DNA of 63,025 nucleotides, counting the filler, from Myxococcota bacterium (GTDB taxonomy: Bacteria > Myxococcota_C > UBA6777), in the NCBI GenBank assembly GCA_023150835.1. It is 3 parts of 3 records of this genome, joined end to end, with 100 filler letters (N's around TTAATTAATTAA, not from the genome) between each part and the next. Parts side by side here need not be neighbours in the genome. Positions count along the whole stretch, not along the records: positions 25,371 to 50,458 come from JAKLKB010000104.1; 2 more parts are not named here. One strand, given 5' to 3'. The position numbers and the translations under genes are program-made. Of the stretch, positions 8,453-40,557 are shown one piece after another. Numbering within the stretch: the stretch's first letter is position 1; each line of letters opens with the position of its first letter. The notes below the pieces were generated by a model. It had not been told where the DNA came from. It ran no database searches and saw nothing but the letters and a program-made list of their open reading frames with translations.

Positions 8453-11400
8453 TTAACGGCGTGAAGGCGGAGCGCAAGTGCCTGTGTTGTTGGTCCCGGG
8501 GGCGCAGTTTTCTTGCTTGGGAGCAGAGCGTGTCGGCGGAGGCGTCGTTGGTGCGGGGGCTTTCAACAAGTCCAGCGAAGGAACCAGTGAGCCGCTGGAG
8601 GGGGGAGCCTTGGTGGGGTCGTTGGTTTTGGCGGGTGTTGGCGCTTTCAACGCTGCTTCGATGGCCGCTTTGAGATCTTCGTAGGTGGGGGACTTGATGC
8701 GTGTGTTGTTGACAAAGAACGTGGGCGTTCCGCTGACGCCAAAGCGTTCGCCGATCTCCATGTCTTTGTCGACGGCTTCTTTGTAAACGCCCGCATCAAG
8801 GGATTGTTGGAGGTGCAAGACATTCATTCCGATCTCTTGAGCGTAGCGTTCGAGATCGGCGCGTTGGAGCTTGCTGTAGTTGGCGAAAAGTTTGTCGTGG
8901 TATTGCCAAAACTTCCCTTGTTCTTGGGCGACCATCGCTGCTTGCGAGGCAAGGTGGGCGTTTTTGTGGAAGCTCAGCGGATAGTGCTTAAACACAAAGC
9001 GCACACGATCTTTGTATTCTGTGGCGAGTTTTTGGAGTGTGAGCGCGGCTTTGGAACAGAAAGGACATTCAAAGTCGGAAAACTCGACCACCGTCACGCG
9101 GGCTTTTTCGGCTCCTTTCCATGCGGAGCCTTGGGTCGGGATGTTTGAAAAGTCAGGCAGTTCCGAGGCTTTGACGCCTTTGGCGAGCAGGATGTCGTTG
9201 AGCTTTTTGGCGATATCGCCAAAGCTCGCCCCTTGGGATGCCTCGTTGTTGACGTAGAACGAAGGGGTTCCACCCACACCAAAACGTCCGCCAAGGCTCA
9301 TATCTGCATCGACTTCTTCTTTGTAAAGGCCCGAATCAAGGGCTTTTCTGAATCTGTCCATGTCGAGGCCGATCTCTTGGGCATAGCGATCCAGATCGGT
9401 GCGCAAGAGATTGCGTTGGTTGGCAAAGAGTTTGTCGTGGTATTCCCAGAACTTGCCTTGGGCGTGAGCAGCGACGGAAGCTTGTGAGGCGAGGTGGGCG
9501 TTTTTGTGGAAGCTCAACGGGTAGTGTTTGAACACAAAGCGCACATAACGGCCATAGGTTTTTTCAAGTTGTTTGAGTGTATTGGCAGCCCGTGAGCAGT
9601 AAGGACACTCGAAGTCAGAGAACTCGACGACGGTTGCGAGGGGCTGTTTTGCGCCTTTCCAAGCGGAGTTTCGCAGCGGGATCTCGGTGGCCGAAGGAAG
9701 CTCGCTTGGGGGAACGCCTTTTTTCGAGAGGATATCGTTGAGGGTTTGGGAAAGCGCCTTGTAATCGACCCCTGTGGCTTTTTTGCCTTCGACAAAGAAG
9801 CTTGGTGTGCCGCTCACCCCGATGCGTGTGCCTTCTGCCATCTCAAGATCGACACGCCCTTTGTAGATCCCCGAATCAAGGGATTTTTTGAACTTGTCCA
9901 TATCGAGGCCGACCTCTTGGGCGTAACGTTCGAGATCAGCGCGCAAGAGATTGCGTTGGTTGGCAAAGAGTTTGTCGTGGTATTCCCAGAACTTGCCTTG
10001 TTCTTGGGCGGCGATAGAAGCCTGTGAGGCAAGGTGGGCATTTTTGTGGAAGCTCAGCGGATAGTGCTTGAAGACAAAGCGCACGTATTTTTTGTAATCC
10101 GCAGCCAAGGCGGAAAGAGTGTTTGCAGCCCGTGAACAATAAGGACACTCGAAGTCAGAGAACTCGACGACGGTTGCAAGAGGGGTTTCTGCGCCCTTCC
10201 AAGCGGAGTTTCCGAGGGTGATCTCTTCGCCGGGTTCTTCGGGGAGATCGGTTTTTTTGATGCCTTTTTGCAAAAGGATCGGATCGATGGCCTCTTTGAA
10301 AGCAGAAAAAGACAAGCCGCTGCTCAGTTTTTGACCGTTGATAAAGAAGGTGGGGGTTCCACGCACACCGATTTTGTTGCCTTGGCGGATATCTTCGTCC
10401 ACAAAGTTGCCAAGAGATACGGAGTCAAGGGCTTGGGTGAAGCTGTCCATATCCAGTTCGAGCGAGCGAGCATACGCAAGCAAAGACGGGCGTGTCAGGT
10501 TCTTTTGGCCGGCAAACAACAGATCGTGGTAGGCCCAAAACTTCCCTTGTTGGTGGGCGGCCATCGAGGCGGTCGCTGCGCCTTTGGCGGCAAAGTGAAA
10601 GCCGAGCGGATAATGCTTAAACACAACGCGTACTTTGTCTCCATAAGCACGTGCGACTTTTTTTACAGCCTGTGCGCCTTGGACGCAGTAGGGGCATTCA
10701 AAGTCGGAGAACTCAACGATCGTCACAGGAGCATCATCAGGCCCGAGGGTAGGGGCTTCTCCTACAGCGATCACTTGGGGCTTGTCGTCTTCGGCGTCGC
10801 GGGGGCGGGGTGGGGGAGCAGCTTCGCGCTGTTTGCCTTTTTCGATGATGGCGTTGTAGAGGGCATCTCCGCGTTGACCTTTGGCGATCTGAGGCTTGAG
10901 ACGTTCGAGTTCGTCATCGATCAGCCCTTTGACATCTTTGTCCGTGAGGGCGCTCGCGAGGCGTCCGTTGACGAAGGCGGTGGGGGTGCCTTGGACGCCC
11001 ACTTGTGCGCCGAGTTTCATGTCTTCGTCTACTTCGGATGCGTGGGTTTTTTTGTCGAGGGCTTCTTTGAACCGCGCCATATCAAGGCCGATCTCTCGGG
11101 CATAACGATCAAGGTGGCTGCGTTGGAGCTTGCGTTGGTTGGCGAACAGCTTGTCGTGGTATTGCCAAAACTTTCCTTGGCGCATCGCTTCGATCGAGGC
11201 TTGCGAGGCGAGATGCGCGTTTTTGTGAAAGCTGAGCGGAAAGTGCTTGAAAGCGTAGCGAACTTTTCCTTGGTATTGTTGGGCCAGCGTTTCAAGGGTT
11301 TTGGCTCCACGAGAGCAAAAAGGACATTCAAAGTCGGAGAACTCGACGATCGTGACGATCGCGTTTTTGTCGCCTTTTTGTGGAGAAGTTCCGAGGGGAA

Positions 11401-11572
11401 CTTTCCATATCTCGGGGTCTTTTGTGGCAAGATTGAACTTTTTTTCTTTGTATACATCTTGTAAAGAGCCGTAGGATGGGTTGCTTGCGCTTTTGGGCCC
11501 CCCCTCAATGTTGTAGGGATCCTTGCAACCCACAAGGAAAAGCGCCACAAACAAAAACCAACGAAGTTGCAT
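8453..11572 (-). CDS. Lipoprotein with five tandem DsbA-like (thioredoxin-fold) domains
   Basis: GGAGG RBS, then MQLRWFLFVALFLVGC (lipobox). Five EFSDFECP[FY]C active sites, each followed by a GTP[TS] cis-Pro loop. Confidence 0.93.
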   Translation of the reverse strand: MQLRWFLFVALFLVGCKDPYNIEGGPKSASNPSYGSLQDVYKEKKFNLATKDPEIWKVPLGTSPQKGDKNAIVTIVEFSDFECPFCSRGAKTLETLAQQYQGKVRYAFKHFPLSFHKNAHLASQASIEAMRQGKFWQYHDKLFANQRKLQRSHLDRYAREIGLDMARFKEALDKKTHASEVDEDMKLGAQVGVQGTPTAFVNGRLASALTDKDVKGLIDDELERLKPQIAKGQRGDALYNAIIEKGKQREAAPPPRPRDAEDDKPQVIAVGEAPTLGPDDAPVTIVEFSDFECPYCVQGAQAVKKVARAYGDKVRVVFKHYPLGFHFAAKGAATASMAAHQQGKFWAYHDLLFAGQKNLTRPSLLAYARSLELDMDSFTQALDSVSLGNFVDEDIRQGNKIGVRGTPTFFINGQKLSSGLSFSAFKEAIDPILLQKGIKKTDLPEEPGEEITLGNSAWKGAETPLATVVEFSDFECPYCSRAANTLSALAADYKKYVRFVFKHYPLSFHKNAHLASQASIAAQEQGKFWEYHDKLFANQRNLLRADLERYAQEVGLDMDKFKKSLDSGIYKGRVDLEMAEGTRIGVSGTPSFFVEGKKATGVDYKALSQTLNDILSKKGVPPSELPSATEIPLRNSAWKGAKQPLATVVEFSDFECPYCSRAANTLKQLEKTYGRYVRFVFKHYPLSFHKNAHLASQASVAAHAQGKFWEYHDKLFANQRNLLRTDLDRYAQEIGLDMDRFRKALDSGLYKEEVDADMSLGGRFGVGGTPSFYVNNEASQGASFGDIAKKLNDILLAKGVKASELPDFSNIPTQGSAWKGAEKARVTVVEFSDFECPFCSKAALTLQKLATEYKDRVRFVFKHYPLSFHKNAHLASQAAMVAQEQGKFWQYHDKLFANYSKLQRADLERYAQEIGMNVLHLQQSLDAGVYKEAVDKDMEIGERFGVSGTPTFFVNNTRIKSPTYEDLKAAIEAALKAPTPAKTNDPTKAPPSSGSLVPSLDLLKAPAPTTPPPTRSAPKQENCAPGTNNTGTCAPPSRR

Positions 11573-11806
11573 CAACAAAACCTCCATACCGCTTGGATAG
11601 AACAGGATGCGGGCGCACACGCCGCGTAGAGCAGAACAGACGGCAAATACGGGATGCGCGATCCTCGCGCCCAACGGCTGGCAAGATGCACGGATTTTCC
11701 CATCACGTCAAGCCATTCCACAGGTGCCACAACGCTGCGCTATCTCTCTTTTTCCCTTGTTTTTGCACGTTCTCTCTTTTTCCCTTGTTTTACAGGAGAA
11801 TCGACC

Positions 11807-35926: not shown

Positions 35927-35974
35927 CAAAGGCTCGCTTTTGGTTTGGATCAACACGACATGAATTCGTCCACA

Positions 35975-36385
35975 TCAACGGCGTAGCGGTCGGCAGATCC
36001 AACGCCAACACCGTCGGCCCCGATAAGCATAGCTGACACGAACACGCTTGCTCCCGCGACCGCAAGACAACGACTGCACAGACGGACAAAACGCACGCAA
36101 CGGCGGCGGACAAGACCAACGATGACAAGTCTGGCCTTGGTGTGAATAAGTGACACGAAAAGCAGAACGCCCCCCCGCACACGATGGGCGAGACAACACA
36201 GGGCAAGGAAGACGGCGGCAGATCCACCGCCGACAGATCTGGCCTTGAATCCGAAAACTCTCTTGGATCGGGCTGAATCCAACACGGCAGACAGGGCGGC
36301 GAGCCACAGGACAGCGCGCCTCTGCCTGCACAGAAGCGAACCACACGCCCAACCATCCGATCAGTCCAATCCTCCAAGCCCACAT
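35975..36385 (-). CDS. Small secreted Cys/Arg/Trp-rich protein with three 32-aa repeats
   Basis: GGAGG upstream; signal-peptide-like MWAWRIGLIGWLGVWFASVQAEA; CP-x6-C-x17-C-x-RW-x-C three times. Confidence 0.85.
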   Translation of the reverse strand: MWAWRIGLIGWLGVWFASVQAEARCPVARRPVCRVGFSPIQESFRIQGQICRRWICRRLPCPVLSRPSCAGGRSAFRVTYSHQGQTCHRWSCPPPLRAFCPSVQSLSCGRGSKRVRVSYAYRGRRCWRWICRPLRR

Positions 36386-36557
36386 CGCCTTTTGCCTCCG
36401 CTCCTTGCTTTCTCTTCTGTGTTGTTTCCCAACGTTGTGATCTGGCACACAACTGCGAATGCCCCTTTGGACGCCTCCCCCCTCGTTTTCCATTCAAAAA
36501 AATCTCCACCGCTCTCTCCCCCGCAGAGACGGCCCGCGCAGAGGCAGGAAAAAAAGA

Positions 36558-37793
36558 TCATCCCAACCCCAGATAGCGCCGAAGCGACGGGTTGCGCGGA
36601 GTGGCTTTCCACAAAAAGCCGTCGAGAAAGTAATGCGTGGCTTGAGGGATGGTCAAAAACGCGATCCAAAAAGCCCGCCAAGCGGGTTCTTTGACCGCAG
36701 CGATCGGATATCGCAAAAAAAACCCGTAAAATGCGGCATGATCACGCCCATGCACCAACAGATCCCAAAAGTATTCTTCCCAAAACGAAAACAACAACAC
36801 AGGGACCACAAACAACGCCACGGAAAACACCCGCCGCGTCAAATAAGGCCGCCACACCGCCCACGCCAGACGCTTGGCGCGTTCTTCGTCACGCCACGCA
36901 TTTTCCGTGTACATGTACACCAAGCCGTAGTATGGGATGCCATGCGCCACCACGTTCGTCAGCGCAAACGCAAACGGCGAATCCAAATGCACGATCCCAA
37001 GATACCAGTTCACATAAGTGCCTGTGACCCATAAGATCTTGCCCCACGCCAACCCCACGTCGTAGCGCTTTGCGGTGTACACATGCAAGCCCACCCATCC
37101 CACCACCGAACCCACCCATACACCCACCACAAGCCACACCAACACGTCATACACGCTCCAGCCCCACCCCACCGAGCGCAGACGTTGCGTGTACATCAAC
37201 CAAGAAACAAAGTCCCCTTGTGCAAACCAACTGATCTTTCGCGGAAGATGCGTGTGCCAATAAAGGATCGGAAGCCCTGTGGCGATGTAGATGCAGACCC
37301 GATCCCAAAAGCGTACACGCCCCAACCACGCCTTGCGCTGCGTGCGTTCTGCCTCGCCCACACCGCGCAACAACACACCGCTCAGGCGGCCATGATACAA
37401 CGCCGTAATCCCCACCTGCTGCTTGATAAAATGGTACAACGCAAAATACGCAAGTACCCGCCAAAACAACGCAGTCGAGATGTACGCAAGCAACCACGCC
37501 ACCACAAAAGACAACAGCGGGAACCCCCACAACAGATCGCGATTGCGCGCCCGATGCTCTGGATCAAAGTAGGTCCGAAACACCGTCGCCCACACATGTC
37601 CCACGTCGATCAACAACACGATCAGCACCCACCCCCAAATCGGCATCTTCGCGTACATCAACGACGAAGGCAAACAAAACACCACCCCCCAACAAAACCA
37701 GATCGGAACGTGAAAAAACCCCAGATCAAACCCCCGCCCACCAAACCACAGATCCCCGCCCTCCCGCTCGTTGGACTGCTTCACCTCGCTCAT
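36558..37793 (-). CDS. Multi-TM membrane protein with spaced His motifs
   Basis: DVGHVWAT, YHFIKQQ, VAHGIPY and PQATHYFLDG between TM segments; start inferred from the GGAGGGAG RBS. Confidence 0.8.
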   Translation of the reverse strand: MSEVKQSNEREGGDLWFGGRGFDLGFFHVPIWFCWGVVFCLPSSLMYAKMPIWGWVLIVLLIDVGHVWATVFRTYFDPEHRARNRDLLWGFPLLSFVVAWLLAYISTALFWRVLAYFALYHFIKQQVGITALYHGRLSGVLLRGVGEAERTQRKAWLGRVRFWDRVCIYIATGLPILYWHTHLPRKISWFAQGDFVSWLMYTQRLRSVGWGWSVYDVLVWLVVGVWVGSVVGWVGLHVYTAKRYDVGLAWGKILWVTGTYVNWYLGIVHLDSPFAFALTNVVAHGIPYYGLVYMYTENAWRDEERAKRLAWAVWRPYLTRRVFSVALFVVPVLLFSFWEEYFWDLLVHGRDHAAFYGFFLRYPIAAVKEPAWRAFWIAFLTIPQATHYFLDGFLWKATPRNPSLRRYLGLG

Positions 37794-38202
37794 CCACCAA
37801 CACTCCCTCCAATACAGCAGAACGTGCCCGATGATAGGGACTTTCCATACCATAGCAAACGCCAACCTTTGGCTCTTCAACAGACACCCACCCTAGCAAG
37901 CCGCCCACGCCCCTGTCAACCAAACTGCATTGGGCGGATAGGGGCGTACCATGCTCTCAAGACACCCACGCCCGAATCAAACAACTCCCTACCGCTCGCC
38001 CGAATCACCCCCCCACGACCCATCGCCTCCAACACCATCGCCCACACCACCCGCCTCTTCCTTCCCCGAACACCTCGAATAAAAAAAACCAAGACAACAC
38101 AACACCTCCCAAGGTCTTCTCTACGACCAAAACACTTGGACGAAAAAACGTCGCCCAAGCCATCCAGCCACAAACGATCCAACCCGAAGTGGGGCGCTTC
38201 CC

Positions 38203-40557
38203 ATGAGAAATCCACCGACATCTCGCACCGTACACGGCCTTGCATGGATGGCTCTGCTTTTCCTTGCATGGGCTTGTTCTCCCACCCCTCCCACCACCAC
38301 CTGCACACAAGCAAAAGACTGCTCCCATATCCCCAACTACACCTGCGAACTCGGCTACTGCGTCCCCAACACCTCGCCCTACACCCAAAGCAACGTCTCC
38401 AGCGAAAATCCCCACCAGCCGCCTCTTTTTCCCTCCGAATCCACCACCCAAGAACCCCAAACCACCGAACCCACCACCTCAGACGGTCTGTTGCCCGAAT
38501 CCTCCACCACCGAACCCGCCCAAGAGGGCAGTCGCATCGAAGGTCATCCTGTTGAAGCCGTCCAAGAGGGCAGTCGCATCGAAGGCCATCCTGTTGAAGC
38601 CGTCCAAGATGGCGGAAACATCGAAGCCCCTCCCACCGAAACCACCCAAAACGACAACCCCCCAGAGATCGAACCCACCGACCCTCCGCCCACCTGCGTC
38701 GGCAACGAAACGCGACCCTGTACCACCAAAAAAGTCGGACCCTGCGCGATCGGCGAACAAACCTGCCAACAAGGTGACTGGAGCGACTGCCAAGACACCT
38801 ATACGCCACAAGAGGAATTCAAGAATTGCGCGGACGGCGTCGACAACGACTGCGACGGCAAAACCGACACCAACGACACCAAACCCGCAGGCTGCAAATG
38901 GGATATCGACCACCCCGCGAACACGACCAACGGCAAGCTCCGATGGGTCGCTACCACCCCACACGCTGGCGCGCTTTACATCCTCGGCGAATACCTCGGT
39001 AAACCCGCCCTTCCCCTCCAAAACCAACAGATCTACACCTTCCCAAGCACCACCACCAAACGCGGCTTTCTCGCAAAGCTCCATCCCACGGGCTATTTTG
39101 AATGGATCCGCGTGTTCTGGCCCAACACCGCCGACACACGTTTCCGCCCCACCGCGCTCACCTTCCATCCCGATCCAGCCGACCCCACCAAAGGCTCCAT
39201 CTTCCTCGCAGGCCACTTTGGAGGTGCCCTCCAAAACACCACTCCGCTCTCACTCCATCCCACCACAATCCAAACCACCACCTCCCAAACCACCACACCC
39301 TCCCTTCTCACCGACACCTTGACAGCAAAGCTCTTCGCGATCTTTGTCCTTCAATACGATGCCGCCGGAAACTTTGTCCGCGCCTCCAAAATGGACACCT
39401 ACACAGACGGGACACAAACCACCGCCGAATACTTTAGCGCCAACGCCATCCTTTACGCAAACAATGCCCTCTACGTCGCGGGCGGCATCTGGGGAAAATT
39501 CGAGTACCCGGATCCAAAATTTCCCCAATCCATCAAACATGTACGTGCCTACGATCGCAGACATCCCTATCTGATCCGCTTCTCCACAAACACCTCCAAG
39601 ATCAGCGTCCAAGACGTCTACTTCTTTACGCCCGGTGGCAACGCAACCAGCGAAGTCTTTGGCTTGGCCTTTGATGCCGCACAACAAAAGATCTTCGCCG
39701 CAGGAAGCACGATAGGCGGACTCTCTCTACAACAATATCCCGCACCGACCACCTCAGCCGTCGCAGGATACGGCGGCCACGATGCGTTTTTGGTCACGCT
39801 CAACAACGACTTGACTTCCCCGACCATCCGCCTCTTTGGTTCGAGTGGTGACGACTTTGCTCGTGGCCTCGTCTATGACCCACAACGCGGATTCTTTCTC
39901 TTTGGTGAAGCATTCGTCGGAAGCGGCCTACCTACCGTGTTATACGCAAACTTTCGGCCCAAACAACCAAACGATCCCAACATCGCCTCAATTGACGCAA
40001 AAGGCCAACGTACCGCCTTTTTGGCCCATTGGAGCCCTTCCTACCAAGCACAATGGATATTTGGCGTGGGTTCTGACAATTTCAAAATCCAAGGAACCCA
40101 AGACACCTTTTTGAACCAAGCCTCCGCCACACACCTCGCCTTGCACAACAACACCCTCTACCTCGCGGGCCTTTTCCGTGGTGATCTCGCCTACTACCAA
40201 GGCCACAACACCACTTCCATCTCTCTCTCGAAAAACTCCACAGGCCCCAACGCCACAAATATCCAACGTACCTTTGCCAACAAACTCGCCGACAACTTCC
40301 TACTCGCGATCAACCCGACCACAGGCGCACTCGCCTCCAACAACAGCTACCGCATCATCGAAAACACTTCTCTCTCGGCCCCCATCCTTCGGGCTCCTGC
40401 GGGTATCTCGTTTGACCCACACAACGTTGCTTATCTTTTCCTCAACCAAGAAGATCCCGCCTTCTTGCAGGCCACAACAAGCTTCGAGATATTCGCCACC
40501 ACCACCATGCCTCCGCCCTACAAGGCCGAGATCTTCAAACACCCTCTGCCACGCTAA
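38203..40557 (+). CDS. Cys-rich lipoprotein with one CxDGxDNDCDG motif and a C-terminal beta-propeller-like domain
   Basis: LAWAC lipobox, Pro/Thr/Glu linker with a 42-bp duplication (38521-38604), GGHDAFLV and FGSSGDDFARG blades. Confidence 0.85.
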   Translation: MRNPPTSRTVHGLAWMALLFLAWACSPTPPTTTCTQAKDCSHIPNYTCELGYCVPNTSPYTQSNVSSENPHQPPLFPSESTTQEPQTTEPTTSDGLLPESSTTEPAQEGSRIEGHPVEAVQEGSRIEGHPVEAVQDGGNIEAPPTETTQNDNPPEIEPTDPPPTCVGNETRPCTTKKVGPCAIGEQTCQQGDWSDCQDTYTPQEEFKNCADGVDNDCDGKTDTNDTKPAGCKWDIDHPANTTNGKLRWVATTPHAGALYILGEYLGKPALPLQNQQIYTFPSTTTKRGFLAKLHPTGYFEWIRVFWPNTADTRFRPTALTFHPDPADPTKGSIFLAGHFGGALQNTTPLSLHPTTIQTTTSQTTTPSLLTDTLTAKLFAIFVLQYDAAGNFVRASKMDTYTDGTQTTAEYFSANAILYANNALYVAGGIWGKFEYPDPKFPQSIKHVRAYDRRHPYLIRFSTNTSKISVQDVYFFTPGGNATSEVFGLAFDAAQQKIFAAGSTIGGLSLQQYPAPTTSAVAGYGGHDAFLVTLNNDLTSPTIRLFGSSGDDFARGLVYDPQRGFFLFGEAFVGSGLPTVLYANFRPKQPNDPNIASIDAKGQRTAFLAHWSPSYQAQWIFGVGSDNFKIQGTQDTFLNQASATHLALHNNTLYLAGLFRGDLAYYQGHNTTSISLSKNSTGPNATNIQRTFANKLADNFLLAINPTTGALASNNSYRIIENTSLSAPILRAPAGISFDPHNVAYLFLNQEDPAFLQATTSFEIFATTTMPPPYKAEIFKHPLPR

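Follow-up and report, generated by a model that had tools for sequence, protein, structure and literature searches.

Gene and neighbourhood

The window, by which we mean the whole stretch of DNA that was analysed (63,025 nucleotides), carries on its minus strand a small gene for a 136-aa protein, located at 10608-11015 on contig C41 of the source genome (G000). The gene, the features within it and its neighbours are as follows.

35975..36385, minus strand: coding sequence of the 136-aa protein, from translation (stop TGA at 35975-35977, start ATG at 36383-36385)
36395..36399, minus strand: Shine-Dalgarno sequence GGAGG, read from the sequence, 9 nt 5' of the ATG
36317..36385, minus strand: signal-peptide-like N-terminus, aa 1-23, read by eye
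36218..36313, minus strand: repeat 1, aa 25-56 (i-E 1.4e-10 with the independent profile; predicted strands at mature residues 14-23 and 26-35)
36110..36205, minus strand: repeat 2, aa 61-92 (i-E 2.6e-8 with the independent profile; predicted strands at mature residues 53-59 and 62-68)
35993..36088, minus strand: repeat 3, aa 100-131 (i-E 2.2e-9 with the independent profile; predicted strands at mature residues 89-98 and 101-110)
36558..37880, minus strand: 440-aa polytopic membrane protein, the co-oriented upstream neighbour, 71-73% identical to the syntenic gene of G002
38203-40557, plus strand: 784-aa protein whose N-terminus is lipoprotein-like and which contains short tandem repeats of peptides and a Cys/Asp-rich motif

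The same gene order, with a divergent secreted protein (784 or 900 aa), the 440-aa membrane protein and the small gene, is found in the related genome G002 and in the metagenomic locus L029, and this synteny is weak evidence because both are close kin. The 440-aa membrane protein has no Pfam match and, in the ESM Atlas, falls among unnamed clusters of several phyla. We considered it as a dedicated partner of the small protein, a role left unsupported by its presence, with this query, in one of five relatives (G002). The 784-aa protein likewise has no Pfam match, and a 900-aa homolog of 31% identity occupies the equivalent position in G002. The conserved neighbours of the small gene give no clue to its function.

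Evidence that the reading frame is a gene

The methionine assigned here as the start also begins the orthologs in L029 (136 aa) and in G002 (135 aa), in each case as the first start after a stop, and GAGGC lies upstream of the G002 ortholog at the place equivalent to that of the Shine-Dalgarno sequence. A 172-aa form beginning at the ATG at 36493 (P0002) is the choice of the gene caller; we rejected it because the upstream extension that it adds at the N-terminus is not conserved, being absent from both orthologs.

A locus search with the single protein returned one genome locus (L028, the G002 ortholog) and two metagenome loci, L029 and L030, the last of which we rejected as a chance match lying off the frame of a Pro/Thr-repeat gene. 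A comparison of the gene with L029, which encodes an intact 136-aa ortholog of 90% identity from another metagenome, counts 16.0 synonymous differences against 15.0 non-synonymous ones (pS 0.156, pN 0.049, dN/dS 0.29), and third codon positions account for 18 of the 33 nucleotide changes. The G002 ortholog is 55% identical and gives a dN/dS of 0.31, with dS near saturation. Within repeat 3, the G002 ortholog has exactly the same residues over a stretch of 20 aa, in spite of 11 differences among the 60 nucleotides that encode it.

Two observations would fit a spurious ORF in GC-rich DNA: ORFs of 216 aa and 111 aa overlap the gene on the same strand, and P0003, a database protein from an automatic assembly that is a near-identical copy, switches reading frame midway and back, so that it lies partly in another frame. 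The overlapping ORFs are by-products of GC-rich DNA, and the intact 136-aa version in L029 suggests that the frame switch in P0003 is an assembly error and not the mark of a pseudogene. We give next to no credence to a spurious ORF, given the purifying selection in this frame in both comparisons, the intact ortholog in another metagenome, the conserved Shine-Dalgarno site and the match of all three repeats to a profile built without the 136-aa protein. On these sequence grounds the 136-aa ORF appears to be a real, conserved gene, and the spurious reading may be regarded as already refuted, short of protein-level detection. The original prediction had named such a reading as the one to adopt if homologs, expression or a folded model were wanting; homologs were found, and the model of the fold has a pLDDT of 93.6.

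The DNA of the locus occurs in activated-sludge, wastewater and related runs, six RNA rows among them, and contigs assembled from the RNA libraries of four runs in two studies cover the gene. In RNA run X17, the sole contig on a 4-kb stretch spans 35960-36446, which is approximately the gene and its leader; the ends of the RNA contigs are scattered from 36446 to 36637, with no shared end, and stretches lacking cover are uninformative. Because these assembled contigs carry neither strand nor level, and because DNA carry-over is possible, they are only a hint that the gene is transcribed. A promoter scan returned no sites, and the terminator-like matches fall within coding sequence.

Three modules behind a signal-like N-terminus

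Translation confirms what the original prediction had read at this locus, namely three 32-aa modules, each exactly C-P-x6-C-x17-C-x-R-W-x-C. They lie at aa 25-56, 61-92 and 100-131 and are joined by linkers of 4 and 7 residues. Ahead of them, the first 23 residues show by eye a basic n-region, a 12-residue hydrophobic core and A-E-A directly before R24-C25. Of the 12 small members of the family whose N-terminus is complete, 11 show, also by eye, a hydrophobic segment that ends in small-x-small directly ahead of the first module; the exception is P0009, whose N-terminus is ambiguous. From these features we infer that the 136-aa protein is probably exported. The mature part (aa 24-136) contains 24 R, 1 K, 12 C and 4 Trp, with a single E and no D, for a net charge of about +24 and a pI of 11.6; the only other acidic residue is E22, within the signal peptide. 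The composition is thus as Arg-rich and as poor in acidic residues as had been claimed.

The independent profile is an HMM of 75 repeats from relatives, which are the 81 rows of alignment A3 less the three rows from the window and the three from the G002 ortholog. This HMM finds three domains in the 136-aa protein, with a score of 106.2 bits (E 3.7e-30 for the genome's set of 136,155 six-frame ORFs); the best of 1000 shuffled mature sequences reaches 12.9 bits. Judged by this control, the repeat pattern lies far beyond chance. Repeat 3 is the most conserved of the three modules.

Across the 81 aligned repeats of A3, the positions C, P, C, C and C are invariant (81/81). A G after C2 and the G of the turn are each present in 67 of the 81, an aromatic Y or F in 80, and R or K two residues after C3 in 80 as well. 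The family module can be written C-P-x6-C-x2-G-x7-[YF]-x-[YHF]-x-G-x2-C-x-[RK]-x2-C, and it recurs with a period of roughly 36 aa. Selection on a 32-aa four-Cys module, as first proposed from the diverged repeats of the 136-aa protein, is supported. The claim that the RW pair is invariant stands for the 136-aa protein and its orthologs but fails across the family, where the position after the conserved R/K is W in 12 of 81 repeats, Y in 25 and T in 16. An [RK]-W pair occurs in 16 of the 30 strict motifs of the small and sensor forms versus 6 of the 67 in the large proteins, and is characteristic of the former. The one property common to all family proteins examined is positive charge: across 20 rows, which stand for 19 distinct proteins and include two fragments of a single protein, the pI is 9.29-11.61 and the net charge +24 to +192, with the 136-aa protein showing the highest pI among the proteins compared.

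Distribution of the family

A scan of 1.84 billion representative proteins gave 16 matches at E <= 0.001. We set aside P0012 and P0014, which do not match the repeat profile, and left out P0002 (the 136-aa protein itself) and the near-identical, frame-switching P0003; 12 module proteins remain, among which P0005 and P0008 are fragments of one large protein. The named matches are all 'hypothetical protein' from Myxococcota or Myxococcales metagenome bins. In a collection of 5.8 billion proteins, profile A2 found the 136-aa protein itself and no other, and profile A3 found four proteins, none beyond those already found. Profile A1, made from 16 repeats, matches 5 of 41 genomes, all of them in family f1, and none of the 35 unrelated genomes; within the Myxococcota-like phylum five of the six genomes match, the one without a match being G003 (930 contigs). 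A search for homologs of the kind suggested as a check has found relatives, in the form of the 12 module proteins and the five phylum genomes, and the module family appears to be lineage-restricted and uncatalogued in the libraries searched.

A six-frame profile search of the source genome finds three loci only: the target, C8:3-1586 with 12 modules, and C96:13977-15122 with 7 modules. The pieces on C8 and C96 (loci L003, G000:C8:1-2858, and L004, G000:C96:13023-15124) run off contig ends and the G001 ortholog spans the junction, so that they make up one large gene which the assembly has split. The signal-like N-terminus of this gene and its repeats lie in different frames, pointing to a frameshift or an assembly error at a Pro/Gln-rich stretch. 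In every relative with a match there is a single large ORF, of about 890-1120 aa, in which the profile detects 18-26 modules, and the N-termini of these large ORFs are signal- or lipoprotein-like (L-V-G-C in G005). Small paralogs are found as well.

G002 ortholog: 135 aa, 3 modules
G004, contig C116: 5 modules
G002, contig C12: 4 modules
G005, contig C65 (L025 2807-3925, minus strand): 368 aa, exported, 8 near-identical modules of a six-Cys variant

The large proteins of the phylum (that of the source genome, C8 plus C96, and those of G001, G002, G004 and G005) have in common with the 136-aa protein the module, the period, an export-type N-terminus, the charge and the lineage. They carry 18-26 modules behind a lipoprotein-like N-terminus, whereas the 136-aa protein carries three behind an N-terminus of the signal-peptidase-I type; unlike them, it carries a W behind the conserved Arg of every module and sits at another locus without a PP2C neighbour.

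In five of five loci, the gene immediately upstream of the large repeat gene, and on the same strand, encodes a membrane PP2C-type phosphatase, and the two are a conserved gene pair.

L003 1615-2772: PP2C/large-repeat pair
L019 6843-8048: PP2C/large-repeat pair
L020 2152-3309: PP2C/large-repeat pair
L021 5958-7295: PP2C/large-repeat pair
L022 2663-3556: PP2C/large-repeat pair

Beyond the large repeat gene, the four relatives' loci whose neighbours were scanned encode a divergent TPR protein, followed in three of the four by an IF-2B-family gene; L021 ends before that position.

Predicted fold and cysteine layout

AlphaFold2 models the three modules, from an alignment of 66 three-module stretches, with a mean pLDDT of 93.6 and a pTM of 0.54, a pTM at which the modules are confident and the orientation between them is not. 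One module alone (81 sequences) is modelled with a pLDDT of 85.4. The predicted module opens with an irregular, proline-rich loop that holds C1 and C2, and continues as a hairpin whose two strands, of 10 residues each, are connected at the conserved Gly by a turn of two residues. In both models, DSSP places C1 and C2 ahead of strand 1, and C3 and C4 five residues apart on strand 2, a spacing that puts their side chains on opposite faces. The conserved Tyr is predicted to lie opposite C3 across the hairpin, and the conserved Arg to pair with a cross-strand position that is Glu in 34 of the 81 modules. For repeat 3, the register of the models would give one face lined by Arg, Arg, Arg, Trp and Trp, versus Val, Val, Tyr, Tyr and Ile on the other. 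The independently folding hairpin unit implied by the original prediction of a disulfide beta-hairpin mini-domain is supported by the confidence of both models.

The four Cys of a module most likely form two intramodule disulfides, which would staple the loop to the hairpin. As to the pairing, our guess from the geometry of the chain is that C1 bonds to C3 and C2 to C4 while the loop follows the edge of strand 2, which would be the simplest geometry. Alternatively, the four Cys might bind a metal in the manner of a zinc ribbon instead of forming disulfides, which we hold to be very unlikely; the spacings are C-x7-C and C-x4-C, in place of the two CxxC-type knuckles of a zinc ribbon.

The likeness to tachyplesin and protegrin is not supported in the form originally suggested. 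Those peptides are Arg-rich beta-hairpins with two disulfides per unit, as is the module (in which the disulfides are predicted). They are single hairpins of 17-18 residues with strand-bridging disulfides, in contrast to a 32-aa tandem unit in which the models put C3 and C4 on one strand and C1 and C2 in the preceding loop, an arrangement that would leave no cross-strand cystine ladder. Unlike these hairpin antimicrobial peptides, the module also builds proteins of ~1000 aa.

Comparison with described families

Neither Pfam nor NCBIfam yielded a match above cut-off for any of the queries, which were P0004, the two pieces of the large paralog, and the 136-aa protein together with its 172-aa form, and NCBIfam returned no family even at E <= 10 for the 136-aa protein, the large-paralog pieces of the source genome and P0004. 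We dismissed a sub-threshold match to Arm-DNA-bind_2 (E 0.067) and one to FA_desaturase (E 0.05), the latter located in the non-conserved N-terminal extension. Sequence-profile searches of the PDB gave nothing below E 0.2, Foldseek found no PDB match at E <= 0.001 for either the three-module or the one-module model, and the ESM Atlas held no usable match for the 136-aa protein. A description of the module was not found in the full-text literature, with bioRxiv supplements and most subscription titles outside the scope of that search. These results agree with the original reading, which recognised no described domain, and the structural check proposed with it ended in a confident model (pLDDT 93.6) for which Foldseek had no PDB counterpart at that threshold.

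Small modules held by two or more disulfides are familiar from eukaryotes, in the form of CCP/Sushi, fibronectin type I, the TNFR cysteine-rich domain, VWC and EGF. The module described here is new to the catalogues searched, within a known architecture, that of secreted cysteine-rich repeat proteins. Maxwell et al. (2018; PMC6262176) present such SCREPs as secreted proteins with tandem cysteine-defined domains, whose common theme is multivalent, high-avidity binding, and the database hits that they report include bacterial candidates. SCREPs are an architectural class and not a homologous family, and the characterised members are double-knot toxins of animal venoms (PMC6262176). By the definition given there, the 136-aa protein is a 'pure domain repeat' [AAA], with three modules of identical Cys spacing, and its N-terminus, read by eye, resembles the secretion signal of SCREPs; among the fold types listed, none of those testable matches the module (PMC6262176).

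A second likeness lies closer in lineage. The repeats that serve as stalks of Myxococcus surface proteins such as TraA (PMC13184517) are tandem extracellular Cys-rich repeats of Myxococcota-like bacteria, as are the repeats here. They differ in that the curated NCBIfam models for the TraA-type repeats match neither the 136-aa protein, nor the large paralog, nor P0004.

Settings of the module and oxidative folding

The module also occurs in fusions. P0010, whose length and domains are the same as those of P0021, consists of a Ser/Thr kinase, a hydrophobic membrane segment and then three C-terminal modules, and P0013 has a signal-like N-terminus and two modules followed by hemopexin repeats, which are rare in bacteria. 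The source genome encodes VKOR (94 bits) in one 605-aa open frame together with two DsbA-like domains (G000:C113:8976-10580, minus strand). At E <= 1e-10 the genome gives 18 matches to Thioredoxin_4, and a search of it, at 93% completeness, detected no DsbB. The kinase and hemopexin fusions, the N-termini of the small members and the VKOR/DsbA genes together point to a module that is extracytoplasmic and oxidised. Indeed, from its occurrence in these different proteins, the module would seem to be a general extracytoplasmic building block of the phylum.

Proposed function

The 136-aa protein would be exported through Sec and cleaved by signal peptidase behind A-E-A, to yield a 113-residue polycation of three tandem modules. 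Within each module, the CP-x6-C loop would be packed on a long two-stranded hairpin, with C-x-R-W-x-C on the second strand. The shared positive charge of the family, its rigid tandem units and the extracytoplasmic setting argue for multivalent binding of anionic polymers, and the three-module protein would most likely be a rigid, multivalent binder of such a polymer outside the cytoplasm. Candidate ligands are envelope glycolipid, cell wall, extracellular DNA and acidic exopolysaccharide, be it from other cells or from the sludge floc. The Arg/Trp-lined hairpins would make the contacts, and the three-module protein would represent a soluble version of the polyanion binder of the family. We give about an even chance to the full proposal of an exported, disulfide-stapled, multivalent polycation that binds anionic polymers of the envelope or matrix; two parts of it, the reality of the gene and the secreted disulfide repeat, we hold to be jointly very probable.

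An antimicrobial role is just as compatible with a high positive charge. The protein could be a weapon, that is, a defensin-like, Arg/Trp-rich secreted protein that would permeabilise the membranes of competitors or prey, with three hairpins for avidity. Consistent with such a role are the net charge of about +24 and four Trp of the mature part, the face of repeat 3 on which Arg and Trp would alternate in the hairpin register of the models, the enrichment of [RK]-W in the small and sensor forms (16/30) over the large proteins (6/67), and the source names, which label the lineage Myxococcota or Myxococcales. We nevertheless consider a weapon rather unlikely, because the module is also the building unit of proteins of ~890-1120 aa and of a kinase ectodomain, and occurs in a fusion with hemopexin repeats, none of which is an antimicrobial-peptide architecture; because no immunity, transporter or toxin-type gene is seen among the neighbours; and because the predicted Cys layout is not a cross-strand ladder.

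The pairing of the large repeat gene with a membrane PP2C phosphatase in all five loci, and the one metagenomic Ser/Thr kinase with three modules after its membrane segment, raise a different possibility. The 136-aa protein might be a soluble partner or decoy in envelope signalling, making module-module contact with the large repeat protein or with the ectodomain of a Ser/Thr kinase or PP2C. We regard this as improbable, since the small gene lies elsewhere in the genome than the large repeat gene and no kinase or phosphatase occurs among the neighbours scanned.

Tandem arrays of small disulfide-rich domains are often protease inhibitors or lectins. For a protein of either kind here, the tandem small disulfide-rich modules are the sole support, along with the multivalent-binding theme of SCREPs (PMC6262176). 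The sequence and fold searches turned up no family of inhibitors or lectins and no protease gene is adjacent, so that an inhibitor or lectin seems quite improbable. Multivalent binding of anionic envelope or matrix polymers remains the reading that we prefer.

Tandem arrays of small modules stapled by disulfides are a hallmark of the venoms and extracellular proteins of animals, and to our knowledge they have rarely been characterised in bacteria. The present family combines a compact 32-residue unit, for which the prediction is confident, with extreme positive charge and with use in both large surface proteins and a kinase ectodomain, in a host lineage unusually rich in DsbA-like domains. Provided that the predicted fold is correct, the unit would offer a new stable scaffold for protein engineering and a way of learning how the uncultured, predator-like bacteria that live in wastewater flocs attach to, sense or attack what surrounds them. 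The three-module protein is small enough to be synthesised or expressed, and the whole family is therefore testable through it.

A more far-reaching proposal would bring these traits together. The module may be the bacterial equivalent, so far undescribed, of the small disulfide modules in animal extracellular proteins, strung into highly cationic surface rods and sensor-kinase ectodomains by a poorly known, Myxococcota-like phylum with an expanded DsbA/VKOR apparatus, with the three-module Arg/Trp form acting as a defensin-like effector that binds and disrupts the anionic envelopes of neighbours in the sludge floc. We put this forward as a speculation whose correctness we doubt.

Tandem DsbA-like domains in the phylum

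DsbA-like Thioredoxin_4 matches number 12-22 in each of the six phylum genomes and lie mostly in tandem arrays. One such array is in the window itself, where a 1073-aa ORF (8453-11674, minus strand) has five tandem DsbA-like Thioredoxin_4 domains, and a 1426-aa frame on contig C128 of the source genome has at least eight; poly-DsbA proteins of this length, 1073-1426 aa, are unusual. At G003:C139 and G005:C31, several of the tandem DsbA-like matches each contain one in-frame TGA, which could reflect a broken gene, a sequencing error or selenocysteine.
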